A stretch of 64,000 bases of DNA from Candidatus Sericytochromatia bacterium. GTDB taxonomy: Bacteria > Cyanobacteriota > Sericytochromatia > S15B-MN24 > VGJW01. Shown piece by piece: positions 7,589 through 45,568 of this stretch. Within the stretch, counting starts at the first letter, position 1; each line of letters begins with the position of its first letter. The translations under genes and the position numbers were made by a program. Location: contig JAYKHS010000026.1 of the NCBI GenBank assembly GCA_035285865.1, positions 77,766 to 141,765 of the forward strand, in the 5' to 3' direction. A model generated the notes under the pieces. The model ran no database searches and was not told where the DNA came from. It worked only from the letters and a program-made list of their open reading frames with translations.

Positions 7589-7608
7589 AAAAACGCACAA
7601 GCGCGGTG

Positions 7609-25977: not shown

Positions 25978-25980
25978 GGA

Positions 25981-27770: not shown

Positions 27771-27771
27771 C

Positions 27772-28713: not shown

Positions 28714-28749
28714 CGTCAACACCCGTTTGTACCACCCATCATGGCCATG

Positions 28750-29481
28750 TTAACGGCCTGCAAGGTCCGGTGCCGTGACGGATGCCCGTTCCCGACGCAG
28801 TCTGTCCAAGGCGCGCCTCGCCATCCCGGCGAGGCGTTCGTCTCCGCGTTGGCGCGCATCTGACTCGATGGCAAGCCAGAGTTGCCTCGCGAGGTCGGGG
28901 TCATGCCGACGCTCGGCCAGGCCGGCCGCCATCCTGAGCGCATTTCGGGCAAGGCTCTGGAGCCGGGGTTCGGCATCGGGTCTCCCCGCAGCCTCGAATG
29001 CATGAATGGCTCCGTCAATGTCCTTGAGCAGCAGGTACCGGACGAATCCGAGTTGGAAGAGCAGCACGCGATCGCCGGGACGATGCCGCAGGCCGCGTTC
29101 GAGCAGCGCTGCGGCGGGTTTCGGCAGTCCTGCGTCACCCAGGGCCCAGCAGCCGAAGCTGTAGGCCACCATGTAATCCGGGTCAAGGGTCGTGATGGTG
29201 TCGAGGCCTGCTTCGAGGTCGCCGAAGCGGCGTTCGCCTTCCGGGACGGCCACTACGGCACCGTCATGCTGCAGTAGGGCCAGCCAGGCCATGTCGGCCC
29301 ACAAGGCGTCGAAGTCCGTGGCCATTCTCTTGGCGTAGGCTGCCGGAAGTGGCCGGTAGTCCAGCGCTGTCTCGCCCGCCAATCCGGTCGCGGCCACGAT
29401 GTGGACGGAAATGGCCGTCACGAGGGAGGCCGAGAGCAGGAGGGCCGGCAGTCGTTCAGGCTTCACGGCGTTGGAAGGCAA
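28750..29481 (-). CDS. TPR-like helical pilus-associated protein
   Basis: ADMAWL...TTLDPDY..AY...LLERG helical repeats; sits with the pilus ABC transporter genes; start uncertain. Confidence 0.65.
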   Translation of the reverse strand: MPSNAVKPERLPALLLSASLVTAISVHIVAATGLAGETALDYRPLPAAYAKRMATDFDALWADMAWLALLQHDGAVVAVPEGERRFGDLEAGLDTITTLDPDYMVAYSFGCWALGDAGLPKPAAALLERGLRHRPGDRVLLFQLGFVRYLLLKDIDGAIHAFEAAGRPDAEPRLQSLARNALRMAAGLAERRHDPDLARQLWLAIESDARQRGDERLAGMARRALDRLRRERASVTAPDLAGR

Positions 29482-30220
29482 GGATACCGACGCACAGGGC
29501 TGCGACGGACCAGGATATTCCGTGGATCGCCGCCTGCGCGGCCAGTCCCGGAGTCAGGCGCTGCCCATGGATGACGCGGTTCTTGAGATCCAGCAGCGAG
29601 AAATCGGGAATCGCGTGTCCGATGGCTGTCATGATGGCCTTCGACAAGGGAGGTAGCTGGGTGGCCATGCCCGTGACGCTGTCCAGATTATGGCCCGTGA
29701 CATATAGGGCCAGCGTGGCCAGCAGGGTGACGGGCAGGGAAGCAAAGGCCGAGAATCCGACGGCAAGCGAACCGACGAGGATCGTCTGCAGCATGACCAG
29801 CGGGACCTGCCCGGCCAGGATCAGCGGGTCCATCCCGCGCGCGCCAAGCAGCCCGAGCAGGACCGCCGACTGGCCGAGGACCAGCAACGTGCCCATGGCC
29901 AGCAGGCCCAAGGCCTTGCCCAGCAGAAAGCTCGTCCGCGACACGGGTTTCGAGAGCACGAGGAAGCTTGTTCTCCGTTCCCATTCCCGGGGCAGCATCT
30001 GCGCACCGGCCACGGCCACGAGCAGGACCGACGTCACCTCCATGCAAGCGAAACCCAGGTCGGCAAGGATTCGTGCATCCTGGCCGAGCGACAGGCCGCC
30101 CAGGGGCAAGGCGCAGAGCAGGAGCAGCGCGGACGCCAGCATCGCCCCCGAGACCAGGCGCTCGCGCAGCAGTTCGCGCCACGTCTGGTGGGCCAGTGTC
30201 AGGACGTGTCCGAAGGACAT
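29456..30220 (-). CDS. Pilus-associated ABC-2 permease (PilI-like)
   Basis: Multi-TM; EWERRTSFLVLSKPVSRTSFLLGK; C-terminal FQRRE. Confidence 0.88.
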   Translation of the reverse strand: MSFGHVLTLAHQTWRELLRERLVSGAMLASALLLLCALPLGGLSLGQDARILADLGFACMEVTSVLLVAVAGAQMLPREWERRTSFLVLSKPVSRTSFLLGKALGLLAMGTLLVLGQSAVLLGLLGARGMDPLILAGQVPLVMLQTILVGSLAVGFSAFASLPVTLLATLALYVTGHNLDSVTGMATQLPPLSKAIMTAIGHAIPDFSLLDLKNRVIHGQRLTPGLAAQAAIHGISWSVAALCVGILAFQRREA

Positions 30221-30224
30221 CGTG

Positions 30225-30986
30225 TCAGACCGCGACGGCTGCGGTCTTCGGGTTGCGAACCGTTTCCATGAAGAGTGTTTCCAGGTCGCGGCCGTCCCGC
30301 GAGAGATCCGCGATGGCCGCTTCCGCTGCCAGTTGGCCCTCCACGAGAATACCGACCCGGTCGCAGATTTCGGAGACATCCGACAGGATGTGCGAGTTGA
30401 AGAAAATGGTCTTGCCCTGGCGTTTCAGGTCCAGGATCAACTCGCGGAATTCGTGACGGCCGACGGGGTCGAGGCCGCTCATGGGCTCGTCGAGCAGGAC
30501 GAGCTCTGGGTCGTTGATGAGGGCCTGTGCGATGCCGACACGCTGCAACATTCCCTTGGAATACTTCTTGAGCTGGACCTTGCGTGCATCCTGCATGCGG
30601 ACCTGAGTCAGAAGGCGGTCCGCACGCTCGTCGACGACCTGCCGAGGCAGTTTGAAGAGCCCGCCGCAGAAGCGCAGGAACTCTTCCCCCGTCAGGTGTT
30701 GATAGAAATAGGGATTCTCAGGAAGGTACCCGATACGGTTGCGCACATCGGGGTTTTCGGGGCTCTCCCCGAAGAGTCGGATCTCGCCACGGGTCGGACG
30801 GACAAGTCCGAGGAAAAGCTTCTGGGATGTGGTCTTGCCTGCACCGTTCGGGCCCAGCAAACCGAAGGTCTCCCCCGGTTCGATGCGAAGATCGAGGTCC
30901 GACAGGGCGTGGCGCGCCGGTTGCCCGATCTGCGCCGCATAGGTCTTGGAGAGGCCTTTGGCCTCGAGGACAGGCACGCTCATCAT
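30225..30986 (-). CDS. Pilus-associated ABC ATP-binding protein (Myxococcus PilH-like)
   Basis: GPNGAGKTT, YSKGMLQR, LLDEPMSGLDP and NSH. Confidence 0.93.
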   Translation of the reverse strand: MMSVPVLEAKGLSKTYAAQIGQPARHALSDLDLRIEPGETFGLLGPNGAGKTTSQKLFLGLVRPTRGEIRLFGESPENPDVRNRIGYLPENPYFYQHLTGEEFLRFCGGLFKLPRQVVDERADRLLTQVRMQDARKVQLKKYSKGMLQRVGIAQALINDPELVLLDEPMSGLDPVGRHEFRELILDLKRQGKTIFFNSHILSDVSEICDRVGILVEGQLAAEAAIADLSRDGRDLETLFMETVRNPKTAAVAV

Positions 30987-31056
30987 GGCTGAACCTAGTC
31001 TATACCAGAGCCGATGGCCAGCCGCCAGAGGCGACAGGCCCACGGAAAAACTCGGA

Positions 31057-31539
31057 TCAGGTGTTGTTGAGGACCGAGACCACGACGGCGTTGCCGGCCT
31101 TCTTGCCGACGCCAGTGATGGTGTACTGGTCGTTGGCGGTACCCGCTTCGGTGTAGCAAACGGCACCGTAGTGGTTCTCGGCGAAGGTACCCGTGTTGAT
31201 GCCTGCACCTAGTGAATCATTCAGCACGACCTTGGTGGGCGCAATGTTCGCGGTCTGGGCCTGGCCCCACGGGGTCTTGGGATAGGCACCGCCAGCCATG
31301 TACTCGGTCTTCTGGATCACGTTCCCATAGAAGTCTGCCTTCACAGGGTAAACGCCGGCATTGTCCACACCGTACTGTTCAAGTGCCATCTGCACACTGT
31401 GAGCGTTGGCTTGGACGCCGGCATTCTTGGCCTTGTCCTGGGCTCCCATGAAGTTGGGCACGGCCACGGACGCGAGGATGCCGATGATGACGACGACCAC
31501 GAGCAACTCGATCAGGGTGAAACCACGAGACTTGCGCAC
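31057..31539 (-). CDS. pilA: Type IVa major pilin
   Basis: RG/FTLIELLVVVVIIGILA N-methyl-Phe motif; first gene of the pil operon. Confidence 0.88.
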   Translation of the reverse strand: MRKSRGFTLIELLVVVVIIGILASVAVPNFMGAQDKAKNAGVQANAHSVQMALEQYGVDNAGVYPVKADFYGNVIQKTEYMAGGAYPKTPWGQAQTANIAPTKVVLNDSLGAGINTGTFAENHYGAVCYTEAGTANDQYTITGVGKKAGNAVVVSVLNNT

Positions 31540-31707
31540 CTGTTGGGCTCCATGTTCCGGGAAATGGGGGTAGTGGGTGAGGCGTTCCCCTCAAGGCGTC
31601 AGGTTAAACCATGGGCGGGGCATCCGGCTATCCCTCCACGGTTGAGCGTGACTGTGCCCCGTCTCAGAGCTGCCGACCCGGGTTTGTTGCATCCCTGTTA
31701 AGGGTGG

Positions 31708-31733
31708 GTTTGAGCCCCGGAGGCAAGGGGTAG
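31708..31733 (+). promoter_or_regulatory. Putative SigB/SigF-type promoter of the flagellar cluster
   Basis: GTTTGA-N14-GGGTAG, about 50 nt upstream of the fliK-like start. Confidence 0.4.
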
Positions 31734-31781
31734 ACAGGCATTGGGGGTGGTGTTCGGTCGCCCCCGATGAAGGAGAGTGTC

Positions 31782-32945
31782 TTGGCCTTCAACCCCCTGA
31801 GTCGGCTGGGAGGCGGTGGCATCGACCCCGCGCTGTCCCGGACCGCTGGTGGGCGTGGTCTGGGTCCGATCGACGCCGAGATCGACGCCAAGGCCAAGAC
31901 CATGGCGTCACTGGCGTGGCAGACGGCCGTGGGCCGCTCCGGAACCGCCGATCCCTCGCTCGAGGCCGCAGCGCGCCAGAAGCCCTCGGGGCCGACCTGG
32001 TTCGGCTTCCACAACGACGCCTCCATCCTCGCGCGTCTGGCCCAGCAGGGCGTAGCCCCAACGCCCGTGCACCTGCGCATCGCCCAGCAGATGCTTCGGT
32101 ACGGAGTCCCGCTTCAGCCTGCCAACATCGAGCAGATCCGGGCACTCTGGCAGGCTCTGGGTGGTTCGTCGCTCGTCGATCTCGAGGCATTGACAGCCCT
32201 TTTCGCTGCGGGTCTGCCAACCGACCCGGAAAACTTCAAGGCGATGTCCCGCCTGCTTGCCGGTGGGCCGGCCGCCCATCTGTTCGCACGGACAGCCATG
32301 ACGCTCAGGTCGGCCGGCCCGGCCGGCCCGCAGGCCGAGGCTCTGAAGCAATCGCTGCAGGCGTGGTGGAAGCTGGGCAACGGGCCCGAGATGCTGGCGT
32401 CCGAGATGCCCCAATTCCAGCAACTGTCGACCCGCATCCGCCAGCAGGTGACCGCGCTCTCGGGCGCTCGCCTGCCCGAACAGCTGGCCCAGGACGTGCA
32501 GGCCCTCGCCGAGCATTTCCGTGCCCACGAGATGCTTCAGCGCACGCCTCAGAACTCCCTCTACATCCCCTTCTTCCAGTGGCGCGACCAGCAGCCGTTG
32601 CCCGGGGAAATTCTGATCCACGCGGACCGCGACGGGCACGCCGAGCGAACTGGCCAATACGCACAGGTCACGCTGGCCATCGACACGCGCAATCTTGGCC
32701 GCATCACGATCGATCTGACGGCCAGCCGAGGCCACCTCGGCATCGCCTTTGAGGTGCAGGACGCCAGGATCAAGGCCTACATGGACGCCCGGACCCCCGA
32801 GCTTGGGAAGCGGATCGCGCCCAGAACCGGGTACGTGCTGGCCGGGATGCGGGTCGACGCCGTCGGCAACGGCCGCAGCATCTCGATCTTGCTGCCCCGG
32901 CGCAGGGATCTGCGCCGTTTGTCGCGCGCCGTGGGGGTCCTGTGA
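31782..32945 (+). CDS. fliK: Flagellar hook-length control protein FliK-like
   Basis: C-terminal VTLAIDTRNLGRITIDL...LGIAFEV...YMDARTPEL resembles the Flg_hook/T3S4 domain; AGGAG RBS before TTG 31782. Confidence 0.7.
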   Translation: MAFNPLSRLGGGGIDPALSRTAGGRGLGPIDAEIDAKAKTMASLAWQTAVGRSGTADPSLEAAARQKPSGPTWFGFHNDASILARLAQQGVAPTPVHLRIAQQMLRYGVPLQPANIEQIRALWQALGGSSLVDLEALTALFAAGLPTDPENFKAMSRLLAGGPAAHLFARTAMTLRSAGPAGPQAEALKQSLQAWWKLGNGPEMLASEMPQFQQLSTRIRQQVTALSGARLPEQLAQDVQALAEHFRAHEMLQRTPQNSLYIPFFQWRDQQPLPGEILIHADRDGHAERTGQYAQVTLAIDTRNLGRITIDLTASRGHLGIAFEVQDARIKAYMDARTPELGKRIAPRTGYVLAGMRVDAVGNGRSISILLPRRRDLRRLSRAVGVL

Positions 32946-33172
32946 GAGGCAATCGTCCTGACGACGACGCGCTTTGGAACAGCCTGGCGCAAGTGGCCGA
33001 AGCCTACGGGGCTCCGCCCGCCGAGGCCGCGGCCCTGACGCGGGTGCTCGGGCAATTGGACCCGCGTTCGGTGCCTCCCGAACTCGCGGCGGCTGTTGCC
33101 GAGACGCTTGGGTTCGTCTTCGCACTGGATCAGCAGGCTGAAGGAGCGGGCACGATGGAGGGACGTCGATGA
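32942..33172 (+). CDS. Small FlhB C-terminal-like protein (FlhX/YlqH type)
   Basis: SVPPELAAAVAETLGFVFALD matches the FlhB-CC consensus IPxELYxAVAEVLAF; the position after fliK is typical. Confidence 0.75.
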   Translation: MRGNRPDDDALWNSLAQVAEAYGAPPAEAAALTRVLGQLDPRSVPPELAAAVAETLGFVFALDQQAEGAGTMEGRR

Positions 33173-33900
33173 TCCGGGGCATCTACACCGCAGCATCCGC
33201 GATGCAGCTCAACACGCACATGGTCGACGTGATGGCCGACAACCTCGCCAACTCGGCGACCACCGGCTACAAGCGCAAGGAAGCCATCGTGCGTTCCTTC
33301 GGCGATGTGCTGGTGGACCTGACGGGGGATGCCGAGCCGGGGCGGGTCCAGCTTGGCGCCAAGATTGACGAGGTGGCCCGGGACGGCAAGGCGGGCAGCC
33401 TCCGGAGGACGGACGGGCTGCTTGACGTGGCCGTCGAGACCGACGATCACCAGATGCTGGCGCAGCGCGCCGACGGAACCCGGCTCTTCACGCGCAACGG
33501 CCAGCTCAGGCTGGATGCCGAGCGTTACCTCGTGACCAGTACGGGCGACCGCATCCTTGACGCCGGACTTGCTCCCATCGAGATGCCCCAGGACTTGAAT
33601 GGCCTGCGCATTGAGGCCGACGGCACGGTGCGCAGCACTGCCGGTGTCGTGGGACGCATCGGCCTGTTCACGCCCTCGGTGGCCCAGATGACGGGTTTCC
33701 CGGTGGCGATCGGTGCCTTGCTGCCGGCCGAAGGCGGCCGCCTGCAGCAGGGCTATCTCGAGTCGTCGAACGTCAATATCGTCACCGAGATGATGGGCCT
33801 CGTCGAGGCCAATCGCCACTTCGGCTTGGGCCAGAAACTCGTCACCGTGCATGACCAGTTGCTGCAGAAGGCCAGCAACGACCTCGGCCGTACCCAGTAG
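33169..33900 (+). CDS. flgF: Flagellar basal-body rod protein FlgF-like
   Basis: MIRGIYTAASAM...NLANSATTGYK, FTRNG and QGYLESSNVNIVTEM. Confidence 0.88.
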   Translation: MIRGIYTAASAMQLNTHMVDVMADNLANSATTGYKRKEAIVRSFGDVLVDLTGDAEPGRVQLGAKIDEVARDGKAGSLRRTDGLLDVAVETDDHQMLAQRADGTRLFTRNGQLRLDAERYLVTSTGDRILDAGLAPIEMPQDLNGLRIEADGTVRSTAGVVGRIGLFTPSVAQMTGFPVAIGALLPAEGGRLQQGYLESSNVNIVTEMMGLVEANRHFGLGQKLVTVHDQLLQKASNDLGRTQ

Positions 33901-33927
33901 TCCCCAGTTCCACGGAGGAATGTCGCC

Positions 33928-34707
33928 ATGATGCATTCGATCTGGACCGCTGCCACCGGCATGCAGGCGCAGCAGATGCGCATCGATGCCATCGCCAACA
34001 ATCTGGCGAACGTCAACACGACGTCCTACAAGAAGAGCCAGGTGGACTTCCAGGACCTGCTCTACCAGGCGGTGCAGGCCCCCGGGCAGGAGACCGCCGG
34101 CATGCAAGTGGGGCTTGGCGTGCGGCCGGCTGCAATCACGAAGTATCACGCGCAGGGCAATCTGCAGGTCACGAACAATCCCCTCGACGTCGCCATCGAC
34201 GGGCCGGGCTTCTTCCAGGTGACCACCACGGATTCCCGGGTCGTTGGCGGTCGGGCCTTCACGCGGGACGGATCCTTCAAGATCAATAATCTGGGGCAGC
34301 TCGTGACGTCCACCGGCCTGGTGGTCCAGCCCGAGATCCAGCTGGGCAACGTCACGGACATCCGTATCCGCGAAGACGGCATGGTGTTCGGTCGTCTCGG
34401 GGGCGCCGGGCCTGTCACCCAGATCGAGGGCATCCAGCTGGTGACGTTTCCCAACCCTGCTGGGCTGATGTCCATCGGCAACAACCTCTATATGGAGACG
34501 GCTGCCAGCGGTCCGGCCAACGCCCCTGCGGCGGGTGGCGCAAACGGCAATGGTCGCTTCGTCCAGGGGGCTCTCGAAGCCTCGAACGTCGAACTCGTGA
34601 CCGAGATGGTCATGATGATCGCGACGCAGAAGGCTTACGACACCTCTTCAAAAGCCATCAATGTTTCCGACAAGATGATGGAGTCGACCAACGGCCTCAT
34701 CCGCTAA
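33928..34707 (+). CDS. flgG: Flagellar distal rod protein FlgG
   Basis: ATGMQAQQ...ANNLANVNT...FQDLLYQ, FTRDGSF and LEASNV. Confidence 0.95.
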   Translation: MMHSIWTAATGMQAQQMRIDAIANNLANVNTTSYKKSQVDFQDLLYQAVQAPGQETAGMQVGLGVRPAAITKYHAQGNLQVTNNPLDVAIDGPGFFQVTTTDSRVVGGRAFTRDGSFKINNLGQLVTSTGLVVQPEIQLGNVTDIRIREDGMVFGRLGGAGPVTQIEGIQLVTFPNPAGLMSIGNNLYMETAASGPANAPAAGGANGNGRFVQGALEASNVELVTEMVMMIATQKAYDTSSKAINVSDKMMESTNGLIR

Positions 34708-34718
34708 CGGTCGGGAAC

Positions 34719-35459
34719 GTGAGCAACATGCGCGCAGGGGGATTCGCGGGGGTGGCCGTCGCCGCCCTCATGTTGCTGCTCGCTGTCACGCCCGGGGCCG
34801 AGGCTCGGCCGGCGCTCGGTCGCGTGGCTCTGGACACGGTGCGGGCTTCGCTGCAGGCGCAGTACCCGGGGGGCGAGGTCGAGGTCAAACCCCTGCTTCC
34901 CGAGATCTCCACCATGATCCCAAAGGGGGCGGTCGACCCCACGCTGCGCCTCTCGGGTCCCGTTCGCCAACTGGGACCGTCCGTGCCCGTTTCTCTGGAT
35001 GTCCTGGACCGGAACGGCCGCAAGATCGCCTCCGTGGTGCCTCGATTCTCCGTCGAGGTTTGGCGCAACCTGCCCGTGCTCGCTCGGGCGATGCCACGCG
35101 GCACGGCCCTCGCCCCCGCCGACATCGAGGTCCGGCGGCTCGCCCAGAGTCGCGTGACCGGCTCGGTTTTGCTTGACGTGGGGTCTTTGATCGGGGCCAG
35201 ACTGGTCCGCAGCCTCGCCAGCGGCAGCGTGCTCGTGACCCACATGCTTGATCTGCCTCCCGTGGTCCGCCAAGGGGCAACCGTGCGCGTGCACGTGCGC
35301 AGCGGGGGCCTCGAGGTGCTCGGACAGGGGACTGCACTACAGGACGGGCGCGTCGGCCAGGTCATCCGGATGGTCAATCCGACCTCGCGCAAGGACTTCC
35401 TTGCCAGGGTCCGTGACGCCGAAGTTGTCGAATTGGATCTCGGGGAGGAACTCGAATGA
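34719..35459 (+). CDS. flgA: P-ring formation chaperone FlgA
   Basis: Signal peptide, SAF domain and ALQDGRVGQVIRMVNPTS. Confidence 0.9.
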   Translation: MSNMRAGGFAGVAVAALMLLLAVTPGAEARPALGRVALDTVRASLQAQYPGGEVEVKPLLPEISTMIPKGAVDPTLRLSGPVRQLGPSVPVSLDVLDRNGRKIASVVPRFSVEVWRNLPVLARAMPRGTALAPADIEVRRLAQSRVTGSVLLDVGSLIGARLVRSLASGSVLVTHMLDLPPVVRQGATVRVHVRSGGLEVLGQGTALQDGRVGQVIRMVNPTSRKDFLARVRDAEVVELDLGEELE

Positions 35460-36082
35460 TGCGGAGCCTCGCGTGCCTCGCGGTGACCGCGGTGTTGGTC
35501 GTCGCACCCACCGATGCGGCGCGTGCCGACTCACTCTTCCCCGACAGCAACTATGGCGGGCTGATAAGCGATCAGGTCGGGGATCGGCGCATGGCCATCG
35601 GCCCGGGCTCCCTCGTCACGGTGGTCGTGACGGAGAACATCCAGGCCGAGCAGGCGGCGACGACCCGTACCATCAAGGATTCCAAGGTCTCTTCGTCGTG
35701 GGACTTCGGGTCGATCTTCGGCATCGGCGCCAATAACCAGGGCTCTTTCAACAATCAGGTCGAGATGTCCGGAAAGGCCGACTTCAACGGCGACGGCGTG
35801 ACGCGTCGGGGTGGGACGATCTCGATGCTTGTGGCGGCTCAGATCACGGAAATCCTTCCTGATGGCTCGATGCGCATCAAGGGTTCCAAGGATCTGGTGG
35901 TCAACGACGAGAAGTCGACGGTGGTGATCTCGGGCGTGGTCCGCCCGTGGGACATCGGCATCGACAACCGGATTCCCAGCGAGCGGATTGCCGGCTTCCA
36001 GCTCGAGTACCAGGGCTCGGGGCCCAACTCGGCGAAGACCACACCAGGCCTGTTCTCGCGTCTGCTGAACTGGCTGTTCTAG
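35456..36082 (+). CDS. flgH: Flagellar L-ring protein
   Basis: ADSLF, LVTVVVTE, ISGVVRPWDIGIDNRIPSERIA and PG...RLLNWLF. Confidence 0.93.
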   Translation: MMRSLACLAVTAVLVVAPTDAARADSLFPDSNYGGLISDQVGDRRMAIGPGSLVTVVVTENIQAEQAATTRTIKDSKVSSSWDFGSIFGIGANNQGSFNNQVEMSGKADFNGDGVTRRGGTISMLVAAQITEILPDGSMRIKGSKDLVVNDEKSTVVISGVVRPWDIGIDNRIPSERIAGFQLEYQGSGPNSAKTTPGLFSRLLNWLF

Positions 36083-36094
36083 GGGCTTGCCAAC

Positions 36095-37222
36095 TTGAGA
36101 CCCACACGCGCCATTCCCGGATGCCTGATGCTTGTCGGCCTCCTGCTGCTGCAGGCTCTGCCTTCACGAGCTCAGGTCCTGCAGGGTAAGCCTGCGCGGC
36201 TCAAGGACATCGCGACCGTCTCGGGAGCGCGATCCAATATCCTCCACGGCATGGGACTGGTGGTAGGCCTCGATGGCACGGGCGACTCCCAGACGACGGG
36301 TTTCACCGAGCGGGCCCTGCGCAACTTCATCCAGGCCGCCGGCATGTTCCCGACCGAGCGGCTGCGGACGCGCAACGTAGCCGTCGTTTCGGTCGATGCC
36401 CGCTTGCCGCCCTTCTACAAGCCCGGGCAGACCATCGACATCACGGTGTCGTCCATCGGCGACGCCCGCAGCCTAAACAACGGCGTCCTGATCCCGACCG
36501 CGCTCAAGGCCGCGGACGACAAGGTCTACGCCGTGGGCCAAGGGCCGCTGAGCACGGGCGGCTTCGGCATCGAGGTGAACGGTTCCCAGGTCAAGAAAAA
36601 CCCGACTCTGGTGGCGCGCATCCCGAACGGCGGGCTCGTCGAGCGAGAGGTGCCGGTCACGGTGCTCGATGCCAACGGTTTCCTCTACATCAATCTCAAC
36701 AATCCGGACTTCATCACGGCATCCCGCGCGGCCGCCGCCATCGGACGCTCCTACCTCGGCTCGGCCCAGGCCCTCGACGCCGGGACCATCCGGGTCTACG
36801 TGACCAACCAGTATCGCGACAATCTCGTGGATCTGGTGGCGCGCCTCGAGGGTCTCGAGGTGGCACCCGACGCCGTGGCCAAGGTCGTGGTCGAGGAGCG
36901 CACGGGCACGGTCATCCTCGGATCCAACGTGAAGATTGATCCCGTGGCCATCAGCCATGGCGGGCTTATCATCAAAGTCGAGACCAAGTTCAACGTCTCC
37001 CAGCCCAATCCATTGTCGGCCGGCCAGACGACCGTCACTCAGGAGTCCCAGGTCTCCGCCGAGGAGCAGAAGGCCAAGGCGGTCATCTTCGACAAGGGCA
37101 CGACCCTGGGCACGCTTGTTCGGGCCTTGAATGCGCTGGGCACCACGCCGCGCGACCTCATCACCATCCTGCAGAACATCAAGGCGGCCGGTGCCTTGAA
37201 CGCCCAGCTGGAGATCATCTGA
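36095..37222 (+). CDS. flgI: Flagellar P-ring protein
   Basis: RLKDIA...GLVVGLDGTGD, ERTGTVILG and ILQNIKAAGALNAQLEII. Confidence 0.96.
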   Translation: MRPTRAIPGCLMLVGLLLLQALPSRAQVLQGKPARLKDIATVSGARSNILHGMGLVVGLDGTGDSQTTGFTERALRNFIQAAGMFPTERLRTRNVAVVSVDARLPPFYKPGQTIDITVSSIGDARSLNNGVLIPTALKAADDKVYAVGQGPLSTGGFGIEVNGSQVKKNPTLVARIPNGGLVEREVPVTVLDANGFLYINLNNPDFITASRAAAAIGRSYLGSAQALDAGTIRVYVTNQYRDNLVDLVARLEGLEVAPDAVAKVVVEERTGTVILGSNVKIDPVAISHGGLIIKVETKFNVSQPNPLSAGQTTVTQESQVSAEEQKAKAVIFDKGTTLGTLVRALNALGTTPRDLITILQNIKAAGALNAQLEII

Positions 37223-37650
37223 TGCAGGTGCCCCCGCCACCCGGCTTGCCCCCGTCACGGGGGGCGCAGGCTCCTGCTCGCTTCGGGCAGGATCTGTCGG
37301 CCACGTTGCCCGGGGGCGTGCCTCCGATGTTGCCGCAGATTGCGGGTGCGGCCGGCGTTCGTCCCGTCGTGGGTACACCCGCCGGCGTGACGGGGAACCA
37401 GATGGAACCGGCAAATCCCGAGGAGGCGGCAAAGGCGTTCGCAAGCATCCTTTTCGGGTACATGTTTGCGGAGATGCGCCCCAAGGAAGAGGACAGTCTG
37501 CTCGGGGGCGGGGATACCGAGATGTTCATGGACTTCTTCGATCAGGCGATGGCCAGGAATTTCGTCGACCAGGGCAACCCCCTCGTCGACCTGATCGTGG
37601 ATCGTCTGTCGCCCAAGGACACCGGCAAGGGAGAAGCTGGTCCCTCATGA
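37222..37650 (+). CDS. flgJ: FlgJ rod-binding domain only (no muramidase)
   Basis: EEAAKAFASIL...MFAEMR...MFMDFFDQAMA. Confidence 0.75.
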   Translation: MQVPPPPGLPPSRGAQAPARFGQDLSATLPGGVPPMLPQIAGAAGVRPVVGTPAGVTGNQMEPANPEEAAKAFASILFGYMFAEMRPKEEDSLLGGGDTEMFMDFFDQAMARNFVDQGNPLVDLIVDRLSPKDTGKGEAGPS

Positions 37651-38369
37651 GTGACAAGCGTGCCACGATGCCGGGCTCCAAGGGGGCTCCGGCGCTTGAT
37701 GCCGCGCAAATCAAGAAGTACGAGGGTCTGGTACGCAGCATTGCACGCAAGCAGCTCGGCAAGCTGCCGCAGCACTACGAGCTCGAGGAGCTCATCGCGG
37801 ACGGCTGGATGGGGCTGATGATGGCGCATGACCGCTTCGACCCGGATCGTGGCGTGAAGTTCGAGACCTTCGCCACCTACTACATCCGTGGCGCGATGCT
37901 GGACAACCTGCCCAAGCTGCCCAAGCCGCCCAAGATCAAGGGGGAAAAGGGGCCCGAGGCGCCCGAAGGTGCGCCAGCCGAAGGCGAAGAGGAGGGCGAA
38001 GCAGCCCTGATGGTCAATCGGGTGACCGAACTGGCATACAGCTATCTGCTCTCGCTGGATGATCCTGCCGGTGGCGATGGGGACGACGGGTATTCGCGTC
38101 TGGACCAACTCGGTCGCTGGGACAACAAGCAGAAGGAGCTGGAGGAACAGGACCTGCACCGGATCCTGAAGCTGACCATCCAACTGCTCGAGGATCGCGA
38201 GCGTATCACGCTCGAGAATTACTATTTCAAGAACATGAGCTTCGCGGAGATAGGCGAGATGCTCGGTCTCTCCGAATCGTGGGTCAGCCGGATCCATCGG
38301 CGGGCGCTCAGTCAGGTGCGTCAGAAACTGGGCAAGAAGAAGTCGATCGACGACTTCATCAGCTGGTAA
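37647..38369 (+). CDS. fliA: FliA/WhiG family sigma factor (region 3 reduced)
   Basis: Region 2 (RFDPDRGVKFETFA..IRGAMLD), LLSLDD and region 4 (EIGEMLGLSESWVSRIH). Confidence 0.85.
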   Translation: MSDKRATMPGSKGAPALDAAQIKKYEGLVRSIARKQLGKLPQHYELEELIADGWMGLMMAHDRFDPDRGVKFETFATYYIRGAMLDNLPKLPKPPKIKGEKGPEAPEGAPAEGEEEGEAALMVNRVTELAYSYLLSLDDPAGGDGDDGYSRLDQLGRWDNKQKELEEQDLHRILKLTIQLLEDRERITLENYYFKNMSFAEIGEMLGLSESWVSRIHRRALSQVRQKLGKKKSIDDFISW

Positions 38370-38384
38370 GGGCAGGAGGGCGAC

Positions 38385-38786
38385 ATGGACCTGTTCGGCA
38401 AGGAAATCCGCGGGCTCGAGCGCGCGATGGACGGCCTGTCCCGGCGCATGGAGGCCACGGCCCTCAACCTGGCGAACGTGCATACCCCCGGTTATGCGCG
38501 GCGCGATGTCCGGTTCGAGGACTCGCTCGCCGAGGTCCTCGATTCCATGGAGGTGCCCATCGATCCCGAACGGACGGAGGCACCCGAGGATCCTTCCTAC
38601 ATGATTGAGCAATGGCAGCCAAGGACCGAGATCGATGAGCGCCGTCCCCAGCGGCTCGATGGCAATGGGGTGATCCTCGAGAAGGAGGTTTCGACCGCCA
38701 GCCAGGCTGCTCTTCGTTTCAACGTCCTGGCCACGAGCGTCGCCGGGGACTACCGCGACCTCAAGTTCGTCATCGACGCCAAGTAA
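38385..38786 (+). CDS. flgB: Flagellar rod protein FlgB
   Basis: NLANVHTPGYARRDVRFE and RLDGNGVILEKE. Confidence 0.92.
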   Translation: MDLFGKEIRGLERAMDGLSRRMEATALNLANVHTPGYARRDVRFEDSLAEVLDSMEVPIDPERTEAPEDPSYMIEQWQPRTEIDERRPQRLDGNGVILEKEVSTASQAALRFNVLATSVAGDYRDLKFVIDAK

Positions 38787-38798
38787 TCCAGGCCGTGG

Positions 38799-38835
38799 GG
38801 GCTCCGGGCATCGCGCCCGGGGCCCTTTAATTCTT
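38799..38835 (+). terminator. Intrinsic terminator between flgB and flgC
   Basis: gggctccgggc-atcgc-gcccggggccc followed by TTTAATTCTT. Confidence 0.7.
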
Positions 38836-38920
38836 CATTGGCGAACTTTTCGGTTGCATCATCCGGGGGTACAAGAAAGCCGAACCGTCCTGGCCCGGTA
38901 TTCGCTGGAGGTGGCGTCCG

Positions 38921-39319
38921 ATGAGCCTGATGAACGTATTCAATACCGGCGAGAGCGCGCTTGCCGCCAACCGGATGTGGTTGGAGGTCATCGCGGGCAA
39001 CCTCGCCAATGCGCAGACCACGCGCACGGACGAGGGCGGTCCCTACCGCCGCAAGGTGCCGCTGTTCTCCGAGGTGCTGGACGCCGAGATGCAGGGCGTG
39101 CGCGTGTCGGCCATCGAACAGGACCAGAGTCCGCTCCAGAGGGTCTACAAGCCCGGCCATCCGGATGCGGACAAGGATGGCTTCGTCAGCATGCCCAACG
39201 TCAACGTCGTCACCGAGATGGTCGACATGATTGGCGTCCAGCGCAGCTATGACGCCAACGTCACGGTCATGCAGGCCATCAAGTCGATGGCCAACAAGTC
39301 CATGGACATCGGGAGGTAG
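38921..39319 (+). CDS. flgC: Flagellar rod protein FlgC
   Basis: NLANAQTTR..GGPYRRK and YKPGHPDADKDGFVSMPNVNVVTEMVDMI. Confidence 0.96.
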   Translation: MSLMNVFNTGESALAANRMWLEVIAGNLANAQTTRTDEGGPYRRKVPLFSEVLDAEMQGVRVSAIEQDQSPLQRVYKPGHPDADKDGFVSMPNVNVVTEMVDMIGVQRSYDANVTVMQAIKSMANKSMDIGR

Positions 39320-39322
39320 CGC

Positions 39323-39700
39323 GTGCGCATCGACGGTTTCCGAACGCCCGGTGTCGGTCAGGCCTTCGGGGGTTTCCCGGCCTTCGGGGACTTCCCGGCC
39401 ATGCCCGAAGCGTTGTCGTCCGACAGCAAGATGCCATCCGTCACCGATTCCTTCGAGGCAAGCGAGGATGATGGTCCCGGTGCGCACTTCGCGGCCATCC
39501 TGAACGATGCCATCGATTCGGTGAACGCGCAGCAGACTCGGTCGGAGCAGATCACGATGGACTTTGCCTTGGGCAAGGCGGTTGACCCGCATGCCGTCAT
39601 GATCGAGAACGCCAAGGCGGAGACGCTGGTCCATCTCACCAGCAGCGTCACCAACAAGATGGCGCAGTCGTTCCAGACCCTGATGAATCTCCAGATCTGA
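39323..39700 (+). CDS. fliE: Hook-basal body protein FliE
   Basis: FAAILNDAIDSVN...HAVMI..AKAE...NKMAQSFQTLMNLQI. Confidence 0.9.
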   Translation: MRIDGFRTPGVGQAFGGFPAFGDFPAMPEALSSDSKMPSVTDSFEASEDDGPGAHFAAILNDAIDSVNAQQTRSEQITMDFALGKAVDPHAVMIENAKAETLVHLTSSVTNKMAQSFQTLMNLQI

Positions 39701-39707
39701 TCGCCGC

Positions 39708-41630
39708 ATGGGCTTCCTGCAGAATCTGACCCCCCAGCAGCGGATCGCCCTGCTCGGCGGTGGCGGTGGTCTGATCCTGTTGCTGATCGTCGCCATCACC
39801 TTTGCGGTGATGTCGGGCGGCAAGAAGGACGAGCCGCAGGCCCGCGAGCAGGAGTCCGGCTACGAGGTGGTCTTCAAATACCTGCAGCCCAAGGAGATGG
39901 ACGAGGCGGCCGCCGCCCTGAAGGCTCAGAAGATTCGCGAATTCAAGTTCACCGAGGACGGCACGCTGCTGGTCCAGAAGGACAAGGTCGTCGACGCGCG
40001 CGTGGCGCTGGGTGAAGCGCAGGTCCCCAAGAACCCGAACAACCAGGGTCTCGAGATCTTCAACAAGAAGGACTTCATCTCGACGGACTTCGACAAGAAG
40101 ATCGCCTTCCTGCGGGCGCTCAACGGCGAACTGACGCGTCTGGTCCGCAAGGTCCAAGGCGTCGAGGACGCCACCGTGCTCGTGAACATGCCCGAGGACA
40201 CGCTCTTCCAGCAGGAGAGGAAGGCCATCACGGCCAGCGTGATGATCAAGATGGAGGCCAGTCGCCAGCTGACGCCCCAGCAGGTCGAGGGCATTCAGCA
40301 CATGGTGGCTTCCGCCGTTCCGGGCCTGCTCACGGACAATGTCACCGTCGTGGACGATCAGGGTAACCTCATCTCGAGCGGCCTCGAAAACAACATCGGC
40401 GACCAGAACGAGCGCCTCGTTTCTCGCGCTATTGACCAGCAGATGAAGATTACCCGGTCCATGGAAGGCGAGATCCAGACCAGCCTGCAGTTGCTGCTCG
40501 ACAAGTTGGTCGGCAACGGCAAGTCCGTGGTGCGCGTGCGCCTTGAGTTGGATTTCAACAAGCGTCAGGTCCGCAATCGCCTCCTGGCCCCCGTGACGGC
40601 CAACGGCGAGCCCATGAGCAGTGCGCGCTCCGTGCAGCGTGAGACGCTGAAGAACGGGGCGCAGGGTGCCGCGCCCGGCACGACGGCCAATCTGCCCAGC
40701 TACCCCTTGCTGCCCGGGAACGTCTCGGGCCAGCCCGGCGTCGCGGGGTCGACGCAGGGTCAGGAGACCTCGCGCGAGAACATTCGCGAGCAGCCTGCCT
40801 TCAACCAGGAAGACCAGATCGTCCAGACGGCCTCAGGCAACATCAAGCGGATGAGCATCGCCGTGCTCCTGCCCGAGACGGTCAAGCCCGAGGCCGTCGA
40901 CAAGCTGCGCAACGTCATCGCGGCTGCTGCGGGCGCCGATCCGGCCCGTCGGGATCAGGTCACGGTCGAGCGGGTCAAGTTCGACACCACGCTCATGGAC
41001 CAGCTCAAGGAGCAGCTCAACAAGAAGGAAGCCGAGGCCAAGGCGGCCGCGAAGAAGAAGGGCGCCGTTGGCTGGAACCTGGTTATCTGGGGCGGGGTTG
41101 CCGCCTTCGTGTTCGCGGCGATCGTGGCGCTCGTCTCCCGGCGCAAGCGGTCGACCGAGAACCCGTTCGATGTCCTGTCCTCTGGCCTCGATGCCGAGGC
41201 CTTGCCGTCCGGCTTCGAGGGACCCGGGGCGTTGGGTGGATTCCCGACCCCCGAGCAGCTGGGTGCCTTGCCCGGCGGGATGCCTCAGATGGGCGGATTC
41301 AACCAGGACCAGACCGACTATGCGGCTCAGGCGGGTTACGGGGCACCCCAACAGGATTTCGGGGCCCAGCAGGCCGGGGGGCCCTTCGACTTCACCTATC
41401 AGGTCGGTCCCGATCAATTGGCCGAGGCCTTGGCGACCGAGCGTCCCGCCACGGTCGCCGGCGTGCTGGCCCAGCTTGACCCCTCGTTCGCCGAGACCGT
41501 CATCGCCAGCCTGCCGCCGGACATTCAGGGCGACGTCTTCAACCGGATGGGCTCCGCGGCACCATTGCCGTCGATGACCCAGCGGATGGTGTCGCAGAAC
41601 CTCAGGCGCAAGCTGGGGGTTCCGGTCTAG
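39708..41630 (+). CDS. fliF: MS-ring protein FliF with C-terminally fused FliG-middle-like domain
   Basis: Two TMs, GLEIF...TDF...RALNGEL and HMVASAVPGL..DNVTVVD; C-terminal PFDF...ERPATVAGVLAQL...LPPDIQGDVFNRM. Confidence 0.9.
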   Translation: MGFLQNLTPQQRIALLGGGGGLILLLIVAITFAVMSGGKKDEPQAREQESGYEVVFKYLQPKEMDEAAAALKAQKIREFKFTEDGTLLVQKDKVVDARVALGEAQVPKNPNNQGLEIFNKKDFISTDFDKKIAFLRALNGELTRLVRKVQGVEDATVLVNMPEDTLFQQERKAITASVMIKMEASRQLTPQQVEGIQHMVASAVPGLLTDNVTVVDDQGNLISSGLENNIGDQNERLVSRAIDQQMKITRSMEGEIQTSLQLLLDKLVGNGKSVVRVRLELDFNKRQVRNRLLAPVTANGEPMSSARSVQRETLKNGAQGAAPGTTANLPSYPLLPGNVSGQPGVAGSTQGQETSRENIREQPAFNQEDQIVQTASGNIKRMSIAVLLPETVKPEAVDKLRNVIAAAAGADPARRDQVTVERVKFDTTLMDQLKEQLNKKEAEAKAAAKKKGAVGWNLVIWGGVAAFVFAAIVALVSRRKRSTENPFDVLSSGLDAEALPSGFEGPGALGGFPTPEQLGALPGGMPQMGGFNQDQTDYAAQAGYGAPQQDFGAQQAGGPFDFTYQVGPDQLAEALATERPATVAGVLAQLDPSFAETVIASLPPDIQGDVFNRMGSAAPLPSMTQRMVSQNLRRKLGVPV

Positions 41631-41644
41631 CGGCCGGTTGATCC

Positions 41645-43750
41645 ATGCCGCAGCGCAAGGGGCTGATTCCTGATCTGATCCTGGCCGGGATCGTCATCCT
41701 GGTCCTTGCGATCCTCGTCATTCCGCTTCCCTTGTGGATGCTGGACCTGCTGCTGATCATCAACCTGGTCGCGGCTCTGGTCATCGTCTTCGTCTCGCTC
41801 TATCTGGTCCGGCCCCTCGAGTTCGCAAGCTTCCCGTCGTTGCTGCTGATCATGGCGCTGTACCGCCTGGCCTTGTCGGTGGCCACGTCGCGGTCGATCC
41901 TCAGCCATGCGGAAGCCGGCAAGGTCATCGAGACCTTCGCCAACTTCGTGGTCGGCGGCAATTTCATCGTCGGTTTCATCCTGTTCGCGATTCTGATCAT
42001 CGTGAACTTCATCGTCATCACCGAAGGTGCGAAACGGGTCGCCGAGGTTGCTGCCCGGTTCACCTTGGACGCCATGCCTGGCAAGCAGATGTCCATCGAT
42101 GCCGACCTGGCCGCAGGCCTCATCGATGCGGAGGGTGCCAAGAAGCGCCGCACGGACCTCGAGCGCGAAGCCAACTTCTTCGGCGCAATGGACGGTGCCA
42201 ACAAGTTTGTTCGGGGCGATGCGATCGCCGCCATCATCTTGATCTTCGTCAACATCATCGGCGGCATCCTGATTGGGATCCTGCAGAAGGACATGGAGGT
42301 CGAACAGGCCCTCAAGGTCTATTCGCTGCTGACAATCGGCGACGGCTTGGTCGGCCTGATACCCGGCCTGTTGATTTCGATCTCGGCCGGTTTCGTGACC
42401 ACGCGTGCGGCCTCGGACTTCAATCTCGCGACGGACCTCAAGAACCAGCTCTTCACCAGCCCGAAAGTCCTTGGCATCGTCGGCTTCGTCATCATCATGA
42501 TGGGCTTCATTCCGGGCTTCCCGACGGTTCTGATGCTGTTGCTCGGGCTTGGTATCCTCTTCGCGGCCTTCGTTGCCTACAGAGGGGGACTGCTCGGGGC
42601 TGCACCGCCCTCCCTGGCGGGAGATGCGCCACCGATGGGTGACGAATTCGACGACTACCAGCCGGAGTCGGACGAGGACCTCAAGAATCCCGAGAACGTC
42701 ATGAAGATGCTCGGCGTGCCGCCGCTGACGCTCGAACTGGGCCTCGATCTGGTACCTCTGGTGGACCCCGGCCTCGGTGGCGAGCTGATGGATCGCGTCG
42801 TGCCCATGCGCGTGGCCATCGCGTTGGACCTCGGTTTCGTCATGCCGGGTATCCAATTCAAGGACAACCTCAATCTGCGGCCGAATGCCTACCAGATCCT
42901 GGTCAAGGGAAACACCGTCGCCACGGGCGAGCTGCTGGTCGGCTACATGCTGGCCATCCAGCTCAACACGACGGACCTGTCTCAGGAGTTGGTCGGCTTC
43001 CCGACGAGCGATCCGGCGGGCAACCGTCCTGCTGTCTGGGTGGCCGGTGCCGAGGCGCAACGAGCCGCACAGCTGGGCTACCTGATCCAGGATCCGACCA
43101 ACGTGCTGACGGCACACCTTGAGGAAGTGGTCCGGGCACATGCTCACGAGATCCTGAGCCGCGAGGAGGTCAAGATGATGCTCAACCGGCTGCAGGAGCG
43201 TGCCCCCATCACGGTCAAGGAGCTGGTGCCCGAAGTGCTTGCGCTGGGCGAGGTACAGCGCGTCCTGCAATCGCTCCTGCGCGAGCGGGTGAGCATCCGT
43301 GACCTCGCCACCATCGCCGAGAAGCTGGCCGACTTCGGCAAGATGACCAAGGATGTCTTCACGCTCACCGAACTGGTGCGGCAACAGCTTTCCCGGAACA
43401 TCTGCGCTTCTGTGGCCGACGATGAGGGTCGCATCGACGTGATCACGCTTGATCCAGCGGTCGAGGGCGCCATCCAGCAGGCCATCCAGCCTGGACCTCA
43501 GGGACCGACGCTGGCGCTGAACCCCCAGATCGCCCAGCTGATGCTTGCGCGGCTGGCTGGCGTGGTGAACGAGGCCCTCGCCAAGGGCCAGAACCCGGCA
43601 GTGCTCGTCAGCCCGATTGTGCGTCCCCACGTCAAGAACCTGGTGGATCGCAACTTTCCGAACCTTTCGGTTCTGTCCTACTCCGAGATCAACGCCAAGT
43701 TCAAGGTCCAGGCGATCGGGGCCGTCTCGATTGCCGTCGGGGCTGCTTGA
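41645..43750 (+). CDS. flhA: Flagellar export apparatus protein FlhA
   Basis: RVAEVAARFTLDAMPGKQMSIDADL, FFGAMDGANKFVRGDA and VLSYSEI. Confidence 0.97.
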   Translation: MPQRKGLIPDLILAGIVILVLAILVIPLPLWMLDLLLIINLVAALVIVFVSLYLVRPLEFASFPSLLLIMALYRLALSVATSRSILSHAEAGKVIETFANFVVGGNFIVGFILFAILIIVNFIVITEGAKRVAEVAARFTLDAMPGKQMSIDADLAAGLIDAEGAKKRRTDLEREANFFGAMDGANKFVRGDAIAAIILIFVNIIGGILIGILQKDMEVEQALKVYSLLTIGDGLVGLIPGLLISISAGFVTTRAASDFNLATDLKNQLFTSPKVLGIVGFVIIMMGFIPGFPTVLMLLLGLGILFAAFVAYRGGLLGAAPPSLAGDAPPMGDEFDDYQPESDEDLKNPENVMKMLGVPPLTLELGLDLVPLVDPGLGGELMDRVVPMRVAIALDLGFVMPGIQFKDNLNLRPNAYQILVKGNTVATGELLVGYMLAIQLNTTDLSQELVGFPTSDPAGNRPAVWVAGAEAQRAAQLGYLIQDPTNVLTAHLEEVVRAHAHEILSREEVKMMLNRLQERAPITVKELVPEVLALGEVQRVLQSLLRERVSIRDLATIAEKLADFGKMTKDVFTLTELVRQQLSRNICASVADDEGRIDVITLDPAVEGAIQQAIQPGPQGPTLALNPQIAQLMLARLAGVVNEALAKGQNPAVLVSPIVRPHVKNLVDRNFPNLSVLSYSEINAKFKVQAIGAVSIAVGAA

Positions 43751-44160
43751 TGCGTGGTGCCGGCCGTCCGGTTGCACGGGCGCGGTCGTGGATCCGGCTG
43801 CTGGTGCTCTGGATGGTCGTGCTCTGCTTCGGAGCGGCCTCGACGTTATTGGAGGACGAGCGCGTGGGCGGTCAGGAGGCGCACCACCTTCTCCTGGAGG
43901 ACGTGTTGGCCTGCGATGCCGTGTCGCTGGGCCGCGGTCTCGCCGGCATCCCGGAGTTCCGTGCGCGCGTGCCTGCGTTACGGGGCGAGTCCGGCCAGTT
44001 CGCTTCACGTCGGATGGTTGACCGTAGTCGGACGACCTCCGGAGGCGTACGGGAGGGCTGTGCGATGGCCCCGCCAACATCACGCGGGCCACCGTCTACG
44101 GGGCGGGGCGGACCTTTCCTGATTCGCTGGCGCGATCGTTGGGGGTGGGTCGGACCGTAA
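43750..44160 (+). CDS. Hypothetical membrane-targeted peptide with RGPP motif (possible arrest leader)
   Basis: Hydrophobic segment LLVLWMVVLCFGAAS, His/Cys residues, SRGPPS near the C-terminus. Confidence 0.35.
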   Translation: MRGAGRPVARARSWIRLLVLWMVVLCFGAASTLLEDERVGGQEAHHLLLEDVLACDAVSLGRGLAGIPEFRARVPALRGESGQFASRRMVDRSRTTSGGVREGCAMAPPTSRGPPSTGRGGPFLIRWRDRWGWVGP

Positions 44161-44289
44161 GGCCCAGGTCGACCCTGCGAGGTCGTCCACGACCCCACGA
44201 ATGCTGGAGTTCCGACCTAGTCCGTTTCATCACCGCCAGCAGCAGCTGTTGCCGCCGATGCCGGTCTCGGCCCGCGGCTCGCCTATTGC

Positions 44290-45568
44290 ATGAATCCTGT
44301 CGACCGCCGGTATGAGGATCTCCGGACGGGTCATCTCGGCCTCAATATCCTCCGCGACTTGATGGCCGGTCTGATCGTGGCCATGGTGGCCATTTCGCTG
44401 GCCATGGGCTTTGCGATGGCCAGCGGATTGGCCCGAGCAGGGCATCGTGGGCGGGGCCGTGGCCGGCGCCATAGGCGCTCTGTTCGGGGGCTCCAAGTAC
44501 CAGGTCTACGGACCGACGGCGGCCTTCATCCCGATCATCGCGGGCATCATGGCCAAGCACGGCTATTCGATGCTGGTGCTGGCGTCGATTCTTGCAGGCT
44601 TGGTCCTGATGGTCATGGGGGTCGCTCGCCTCGGGCGCGTGGTGGCGCGCGTGTCCCACTCCATTGTGGTGGGATTCACCGTGGGCATCGCCCTGTCTAA
44701 GGTCGGTGAGGTCCTGGGCCTGCACGCCAAGTTTGGCTATGCCATGGCAGACAAGAACCGCGGCATCGTCGCACACGGTCACGAGACCAACGTCTATGCC
44801 GTCATCATCGCGCTGCTGACCTTCGCGATCAGCTAGACGCTCATCAAGGTTTCCGTCCTCATTCCGGCGCCGCTGATTGCCGTCGGTGCCGGTACGATGC
44901 TCGCGCAGGGACTGTAGGCCGACAAGGGGCTCGTGACGGTTCGCGAGAAGTACGGTTCCATTCCGACGGACTTCTGGATCTTCACGCCTCCGCAGGGCAT
45001 CGACCCGACCCCGGCGGTACTGGGCGACCTGGCCTTCTATACCTTGGCCATCATCTTCGTGGCGGCCATCGAGGGCCTGCTCTGCAGCCGCATGGCCGAT
45101 CGCCTGGCGGGCAACAAGGGCATGCCCTACAACCCGGACAAGGAGCTCTGGGGGCAGGGTCTGATGCAGGTCGTGGTGCCGCTGCTGAACGGCTTCCCCC
45201 ATACGGGTGCGCTCGCCCGGACGGCCACCAACATCAGGTTGGGTGCCTTGTCTCCGCTTGCAGGCCTTTTCAAGTGCGTGCTGAAGCTGCTGCTTGCGGC
45301 CTTCCTCGCCTCGTGGCTGGAGCGGGTGCCCATGGCCTGCATCGGCGGCAGCCTGCTTTATGTGGCCTCGGGCATGGTCAAGGCCGATGAGGTGCGCGAA
45401 CTGGTCCGTGACGGCAGGGCGCACATGGCACTGGCCGCCTGGACTGCCGTGATGGTCGTCGCCACAGACTTCCTGAGGGACGTTCTGTCGGCGCTTCTCA
45501 TCTTCATCCTGTTCCGGAGATTTTTCGAGACTGGGTTTCAGGCGGCTCCGCCGGCCAGCGCTTCCTGA
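44290..45568 (+). pseudogene. SulP/SLC26 family anion transporter pseudogene
   Basis: DLMAGLIVAMVAI and ALFGGSKYQVYGPTAAF...ALARTATN; frameshift near 44430 and in-frame TAG stops at 44834-44836 and 44915-44917. Confidence 0.88.

Follow-up and report, generated by a model that had tools for sequence, protein, structure and literature searches.

We analysed a stretch of 64,000 nucleotides (nt) from a Candidatus Sericytochromatia bacterium (hereafter the window; contig JAYKHS010000026.1 of assembly GCA_035285865.1) that contains, at positions 39708 to 41630, the gene of a FliF paralogue ending in a FliG middle domain. We call this gene fliF2 and its product FliF2. The features of its open reading frame (ORF), with lengths in amino acids (aa) and the evidence in brackets, are the following.

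39708..41630, forward strand: fliF2, FliF paralogue with a terminal FliG middle domain, 640 aa (ORF and translation)
39738..39827, forward strand: membrane segment 1, residues 11-40 (hydropathy window)
39852..40376, forward strand: YscJ_FliF domain, residues 49-223, the periplasmic ring-building part (Pfam PF01514, 168.9 bits)
40497..40982, forward strand: YscJ_FliF_C domain, residues 264-425 (Pfam PF08345, 92 bits)
41061..41141, forward strand: membrane segment 2, residues 452-478 (hydropathy window)
41145..41405, forward strand: Gly/Ala/Gln/Pro-rich stretch, residues 480-566 (composition)
41379..41627, forward strand: FliG middle domain, residues 558-640, Pfam match 568-636 (FliG_M profile, PDB profile match, AlphaFold2 (AF2) model and VIA-align (VIA) comparison)

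The translation of fliF2 ends ...GPFDFTYQVGPDQLAEALATERPATVAGVLAQLDPSFAETVIASLPPDIQGDVFNRMGSAAPLPSMTQRMVSQNLRRKLGVPV, with the stop codon directly after. Membership of the FliF family is indicated by the model TIGR00206 (203 bits against a cut-off of 129.75), by PF01514 and PF08345, which also exceed their cut-offs, by a periplasmic ring-building region flanked by two membrane segments and by the gene context flgB-flgC-fliE-fliF, an order found again in a relative, genome G016. The TIGR00206 alignment runs over model positions 14-449 of 555 in FliF2, compared with 2-554 in the canonical FliF of the same genome (FliF1, 526 aa). Since it stops at 449, the model's region for the last membrane helix and for the docking of FliG has no counterpart in the alignment. 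FliF2 lacks the C-terminal cytoplasmic peptide that docks FliG_N, its place being taken by FliG_M. Between the second membrane segment and this tail lies a linker of about 80-85 residues; the stretch 480-566 contains 18% G, 11% A, 11% Q and 10% P, and its last nine or so residues are part of the folded domain. Length and sequence of the linker differ widely among relatives in a full-length alignment (n=15), in which the tail is the best conserved cytoplasmic part. FliF2 is thus a full-length FliF with a C-terminal FliG middle domain.

The original prediction had recognized the FliG middle domain in the tail from sequence pattern, and profile and structure comparisons bear this out. In the whole protein the Pfam profile FliG_M (PF14841) matches residues 568-636 at 47.6 bits (cut-off 25, E 2e-12), and on the 83-aa tail alone, the stretch for which a Pfam check had been proposed, it reaches 50.3 bits. 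Using an alignment (A1) of the 90 C-terminal residues from 25 relatives whose genomes belong to the same class, we obtained a profile match to Thermotoga maritima FliG (1lkv) with an E-value of 5.7e-14 over 79 positions (8-86), spanning the ‘PF.F’ start of the domain through the helix after the armadillo-like core. Eleven solved sequences match the A1 profile at E up to 0.01 and all of them are FliG. The AF2 model of the tail has six helices and a mean predicted local distance difference test (pLDDT) score of 88. The top 17 PDB rows in Foldseek are FliG chains aligned on their middle domain; the E-values are weak (best 4.7e-3) and the model is very short. In VIA the best row is the middle domain of Helicobacter pylori FliG (4fq0_C; Z 12.0, root-mean-square deviation 1.8 Å, 80/80 residues), and the best 12 rows are FliG middle domains at Z 9.4-12.0, followed lower down by FliG_C (7.4), the FliF_C:FliG_N complex (6.4) and MgtE (at most 6.2). 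FliG_N (PF14842) and FliG_C (PF01706) gave no Pfam match in fliF2 at E up to 10, and the full FliG model TIGR00207 reaches only 28.2 bits (cut-off 226.7). After the end of the ORF at 41630 the next gene is flhA, as expected from the earlier statement that no FliG_C follows the tail.

Translation and alignment confirm the predicted change of the EHPQ motif to ERPA. The ‘EHPQT...LKRIA’ of T. maritima aligns with ‘ERPAT...FNRMG’ in the FliF2 tail. The EHPQ...R surface motif, which has a role in FliM binding, is not intact in FliF2: E, P and R are retained, while H has become R and Q has become A. The FliGs of the class keep EHPQ. Within the class E28, R29 and R63 of the tail domain are at least 90% conserved, R63 aligning with the R of ‘LKRIA’, and the two residues following R29 depend on the family (PA, PG, PQ or LP).

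To follow the fusion across genomes we ran an 86-residue tail query over 301 genomes of the phylum, 47 of which make up the class (the window’s own genome, G000, included). A strong match to the fused domain was present in 44 of the 47, and 42 of these have it within an open frame of 603-669 aa. The frame is 286 aa in G124, where it starts about 600 nt from the first base of the contig, and 647 aa as printed in G000. Completeness is 73-87% in the three class genomes that lack the fused form. Most class genomes also gave a weaker match whose frame is about 340 aa long, corresponding to an ordinary FliG. Outside the class, matches were found in one family of 2-Mb genomes only (23/124), and all their frames are 341-371 aa. 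In the protein database 108 of 116 tail-profile matches combine YscJ_FliF, YscJ_FliF_C and FliG_M. A query with the periplasmic part retrieved 34 proteins of at least 42% identity, 31 with FliG_M and the remaining 3 named partial; FliG_M occurs in none of the next 53 matches, which are ordinary FliFs of at most 34% identity. Word-based protein searches reach only the Sericytochromatia clade. Among Atlas protein clusters, those with YscJ_FliF and FliG_M nearest to the query are labelled Planctomycetota (62 members) and Vulcanimicrobiota (73 and 52), as read from labels rather than sequences, and residues 480-640 gave no usable match to Atlas clusters when FliG_C clusters were left out.

A maximum-likelihood tree was built from 25 fused tails, 17 resident FliG middle domains and one membrane-anchored FliG. 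The fused tails fall on a branch of their own with 99/98 support, from which it follows that the tail is no recent copy of the cell’s own FliG; it shares 31% identity with the FliG_M of the FliG in the same genome. The domain also occurs in two other settings. A stand-alone 137-aa ORF of the fliF-type FliG_M lies directly after fliF2 in genome G133 (L059:548-961), and P0014, a 778-aa protein from a single metagenome contig, carries two copies of the fliF-type domain in tandem after an FlhA_C-like part.

It is exceedingly improbable that the tail is a decaying remnant or that an assembly or gene-calling artefact joined two genes, and nothing emerged in favour of either. The recurrence of the fused domain in the class, mostly in long open frames, and of all three families in the database matches counts against both. 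As to the assembly, read mapping had been named as the means of excluding an artefact, and in none of 4 runs was an indel or joint listed. No RNA data set was listed as containing the stretch. In run X3, which belongs to another study, an independent contig spans 41079-41900 without a gap and with 67 substitutions, and run X2 carries 41433-41676 unchanged, spanning the stop codon and the start of flhA; run X1 possibly represents the source sample and was not counted as independent. As to decay, codon differences in the tail relative to two congeners are mainly synonymous (26 synonymous to 4 non-synonymous and 32 to 12), and the fusion has been retained across very different base compositions, a G016 locus having a GC content of 27.5% and the window ORF a third-position GC (GC3) of 0.88. 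Judged from these comparisons, the fusion is neither an assembly artefact nor a product of decay.

The genome of the window (2.82 Mb, 32 contigs, 82.7% complete) holds further flagellar genes, both around fliF2 and on other contigs. The names attached to near-identical proteins assign its organism, a non-photosynthetic relative of the cyanobacteria, to Candidatus Sericytochromatia. The genes of the window and the second copies found elsewhere are as follows.

31767..38369, forward strand: FliK-like gene, flgF, flgG, flgA, flgH, flgI, rod-binding (FlgJ-like) gene, sigma factor (Pfam)
38385-38786, forward strand: flgB2, in the block directly 5' of fliF2 (Pfam)
38921-39319, forward strand: flgC2 (Pfam)
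39323-39700, forward strand: fliE2 (Pfam)
41645..43750, forward strand: flhA2, 14 nt 3' of the fliF2 stop (FHIPEP, 802 bits)
contig C22, 4-6 kb: fliP, fliQ and fliR of set 2 (tblastn/Pfam)
contig C22, 6-10 kb: FliM-like gene of set 2 (292 aa), membrane protein with a terminal FliN domain, fliN, hook-like gene (tblastn/Pfam)
L017:8188-9063 (contig C22), reverse strand: position of the FliM-like gene just listed, whose product is FliM2, the FliM of the second set
contig C5: fliI of set 2 (tblastn/Pfam)
contig C28: flhB of set 2 (tblastn/Pfam)
contig C28: two further motAB pairs (tblastn/Pfam)

The gene order in the window is FliK-like, flgF, flgG, flgA, flgH, flgI, rod-binding, sigma factor, flgB, flgC, fliE, fliF, flhA, and the adjacency of fliF and flhA is repeated in G016. 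A canonical cluster on contig C22 carries flgC, fliF, fliG, fliI, flgD, flgE, motB, fliL, fliM, fliY, cheY, fliP, fliR, flhB, flhA, che genes and fliA. Its FliG1 (337 aa, 425.5 bits with TIGR00207) is encoded beside FliF1, and a 272-aa ORF 3' of fliG was assigned as fliH from its position only. The cluster also holds paralogues of flgB2 and flgC2 (that of flgB by tblastn). Second copies were found in the genome for flgB, flgC, fliF, flhA, flhB, fliP, fliR, fliI and fliN; flgA, flgH and flgI are single-copy by tblastn. Because these paralogues lie outside the canonical cluster, the cell has two flagellar gene sets with the fused FliF in the second (set 2), which has its own FlgB/C, FliE, FlhA, FlhB, FliI, FliOPQR, FliM-like protein and FliN. 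The original prediction had implied a merger of separate fliF and fliG genes by which FliG was dispensed with; this is not supported, as the same genome has a complete canonical fliF, fliG and fliH on another contig. FliF2 does not replace the FliG of the cell and is a paralogue in a second gene set. That the covalent linkage would substitute for the FliF_C:FliG_N joint is a reasonable inference.

Several other genes deserve mention. Between the FliM-like gene and fliN (L017, contig C22, about 6803-8200, reverse strand) lies the membrane protein with several hydrophobic segments and a terminal FliN domain (FliMN_C); its copy in G016 (L041:16435-18456, reverse strand) is 674 aa long and matched no other Pfam family. 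Contig C6 encodes on its reverse strand (61137-63134, equal to L016:9140-11134) a 665-aa membrane-anchored protein, distinct from FliF2, with FliG_N (31.8 bits), FliG_M (36.9 bits) and FliG_C (63.1 bits). It begins with a signal-like start and periplasmic pieces, followed by one membrane helix before FliG_N; there is a weak match to the end of YscJ_FliF_C (E 0.022), and a ‘ARGDSLEIMNRQF’ motif resembles the end of the FliF ring domain. This long FliG type is limited to families f1 and f4 of the class, and no motAB genes adjoin the C6 gene. Elsewhere in the window, the minus strand at 23290-31539 carries a type IV pilus block with a PilQ-like secretin, PilO-, PilN- and PilM-like proteins, a prepilin peptidase and a pilin with an N-methylation motif, and at 44411-45568 on the forward strand a sulfate-permease-family gene is interrupted by in-frame stops, two ORFs of the same frame matching the two halves of the Pfam model. 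A scan for promoters and terminators over 31000-45000 gave nothing above shuffled sequences.

FliM2 is the candidate partner of the tail. Its AF2 model (pLDDT 81) has Salmonella FliM chains as top Foldseek matches (E 4e-15) and matches crystal structures of the FliM middle domain at E 1e-8 to 1e-9; the hhalign comparison with the canonical FliM1 gives 98.5%. The gene is present in 45 of the 47 class genomes. An invariant G82/G83 pair in FliM2 was considered as a GGXG motif and ruled out by the hhalign alignment to FliM1, where the loop of FliM2 at the GGPG site is the shorter one.

One family of the class, f6, consists of relatives with set 2 alone. In the survey of 47 genomes f6 has a single FliF gene, of the fused type, in 5 of 6, compared with two in most genomes of the other families. 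FliG_C was found in none of the 6 f6 genomes (40/41 in the other families, G000 included) and Flagellin_N likewise in none (41/41 in the others); these are draft genomes, and absence from them means ‘not found’ rather than proof. The only FliG_M above the cut-off in f6 is the copy on FliF (5/5 genomes), and FliM-like and FliN genes are present. The FliF-borne FliG_M is the only FliG-family domain found in f6 for docking of FliM and FliN. As an example, G016 (5.1 Mb, 3 contigs, 93% complete) has the locus flgB-flgC-fliE-fliF::FliG_M-flhA, together with a FliM-like gene, the 674-aa FliN-ending protein, fliN, fliO/P, fliQ and fliR, and with flgF, flgG, flgA, flgH, flgI, a rod-binding protein and a sigma factor. 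Each f6 genome has one full flhA and one motA (363 aa)/motB pair, the latter beside Flp-pilus/pilin genes. Proteins with the rod/hook C-terminal motif (Flg_bbr_C) number 9 in G016 and 9-10 per f6 genome. Short extra FHIPEP matches in f6 (for example G016:C2:1059210-1060085) comprise the cytoplasmic C-terminal part of FlhA only, in frames of 374-427 aa.

What could the tail bind? FliG_M is the FliM-binding domain in solved complexes, and the entries 4FQ0, 4FHR, 3SOH and 4QRM appear by title among the Foldseek matches of the tail model. Our preference, by a narrow measure, is for a predicted contact by which the FliG_M of FliF2 docks the divergent FliM and FliN of set 2 onto the MS ring, no separate FliG being needed. 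Each FliF2 subunit would present one FliG_M beneath the membrane on a flexible linker, and FliM2, with neither the CheY-binding N-terminus nor the GGXG loop, would bind it via a co-diverged surface (EHPQ..R changed to E-R-P-A..R). Such a surface would keep the two rotors of one cell from mixing, and the pair of FliM2 and FliF2 tail would be CheY-independent and would not cross-react with set 1. A number of observations weigh against this contact. The motif is variable, ERPA in the window being replaced by ERLP, ERPG or EKPQ in other families. FliM2 is without the first ~55 residues of FliM1, including the ‘LSQNEIDAL’ N-terminus, which has a role in CheY binding; its loop at the GGPG site of FliM1 is 9 residues shorter, and by sequence its middle domain barely matches solved FliM (E 0.0095). 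Altered motifs on both partners might equally well mean no contact at all. Since any two parts of one set should occur together, the joint presence of FliF2 and FliM2 is no sign of contact. P0014, in which two copies of the domain adjoin an FlhA_C-like part, directs attention to the export gate instead, and f6 has kept MotA/MotB with no known rotor face for them to push on.

Two other binding partners have to be considered. The FliG_M on FliF2 could be a docking site for a separate FliG, through the ARM_C of FliG1 or of the C6 protein, from which the second ring would borrow its torque domain. ARM_M:ARM_C stacking is the contact between FliG subunits, and both FliG1 and the 665-aa membrane-anchored FliG_N/M/C protein are encoded in the genome. 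Yet f6 keeps the fusion with FliG_C found in 0/6 genomes, the long FliG is restricted to f1 and f4, and FliG1 adjoins FliF1, which has a normal docking end; we consider such borrowing unlikely. Alternatively the tail may contact the export apparatus, either the cytoplasmic ring of FlhA or the ATPase complex, and thereby link the gate to the MS ring. The adjacency of fliF2 and flhA2, 14 nt apart here and kept in G016, and the composition of P0014 would fit with this. However P0014 is a single protein on one contig, adjacency of fliF and flhA is no proof of contact, and the fold matches include no solved FliG_M-FlhA interface, making a link to export a doubtful proposal. Returning to FliM/FliN docking on FliF2, a further step can be put forward tentatively, and we would not give it even chances. 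Set 2 may encode a flagellum-derived machine without torque domain or flagellin, in which a C-ring-like platform of FliM and FliN is hung on FliF via FliG_M. In the family with set 2 alone this would be a rotor that meets its stators through an unknown interface, or else a secretion device that does not rotate but has a rod and L/P rings.

Against the canonical motor (T. maritima 5TDY, 4FHR, 3SOH and 4QRM; Salmonella C-ring 8UMD and 9N49), set 2 has the same FliG_M fold (Z 9.4-12.0) and encodes a partner with the FliM fold. It differs in that FliF2 lacks FliG_N, FliG_C and the FliF docking helices, carries its domain on a flexible linker of about 80 residues, and that EHPQ and GGXG are altered on the two set-2 partners. 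The Salmonella fusions of FliF and FliG to which the original prediction referred are engineered, and PMC4768692 treats them as the known artificial case. Engineered fusions in Salmonella and Vibrio resemble FliF2 in their covalent FliF-FliG link, with rings still assembling; they are laboratory constructs with whole or near-whole FliG including the torque domain, whereas FliF2 is natural and has the middle domain alone.

A natural precedent, which the original prediction did not mention, is given in Bergeron 2016 (PeerJ, PMC4768692): the FliF of Chlamydiaceae (CT719 type), about 330 aa long, is joined to a FliG_M-like domain, and the organism has no flagella and few flagellar genes. As described there, the cytoplasmic end of this FliF after the last membrane helix is likewise related only to the FliG middle domain and has neither FliG_N nor FliG_C, and in the chlamydial protein the third ring-building domain and some of the SctJ-like region are missing. 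The Chlamydiaceae model NF004606/PRK05934 matches the FliF2 tail weakly at the C-terminal end of the model (positions 296-337), and NF004606 scores 36.3 bits on FliF2 against a cut-off of 297. FliF2 in contrast has 640 aa and both periplasmic families of FliF, and stands in a full set of rod, L/P-ring and export genes. Beyond the chlamydial case, FliF2 joins a FliG_M tail to a FliF of full length, and its gene stands within a rich flagellar-type set. Our literature search, which covered sources other than subscription journals and bioRxiv supplements, found no natural FliF-FliG fusion besides that of Bergeron 2016. Nothing was found on flagella of Sericytochromatia, a statement limited to titles: the papers that contain both ‘Sericytochromatia’ and ‘flagell’ carry neither in the title.

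The joint between MS ring and C ring and its evolution are a central question of flagellar motor biology. Our comparisons suggest that a lineage has replaced the FliF_C:FliG_N joint by a covalent link to FliG_M alone, and has done so in a rich flagellar-type set. The relatives with set 2 only, in which neither FliG_C nor flagellin was found, provide a natural control. Two questions thereby become testable: is FliG_M on FliF enough for a FliM/FliN ring, and what is the role of a basal body without torque domain? The finding would also place the isolated chlamydial case in a wider context. If the set-2 machine were indeed a secretion device, it would be a living analogue of a step between the flagellum and the injectisome.

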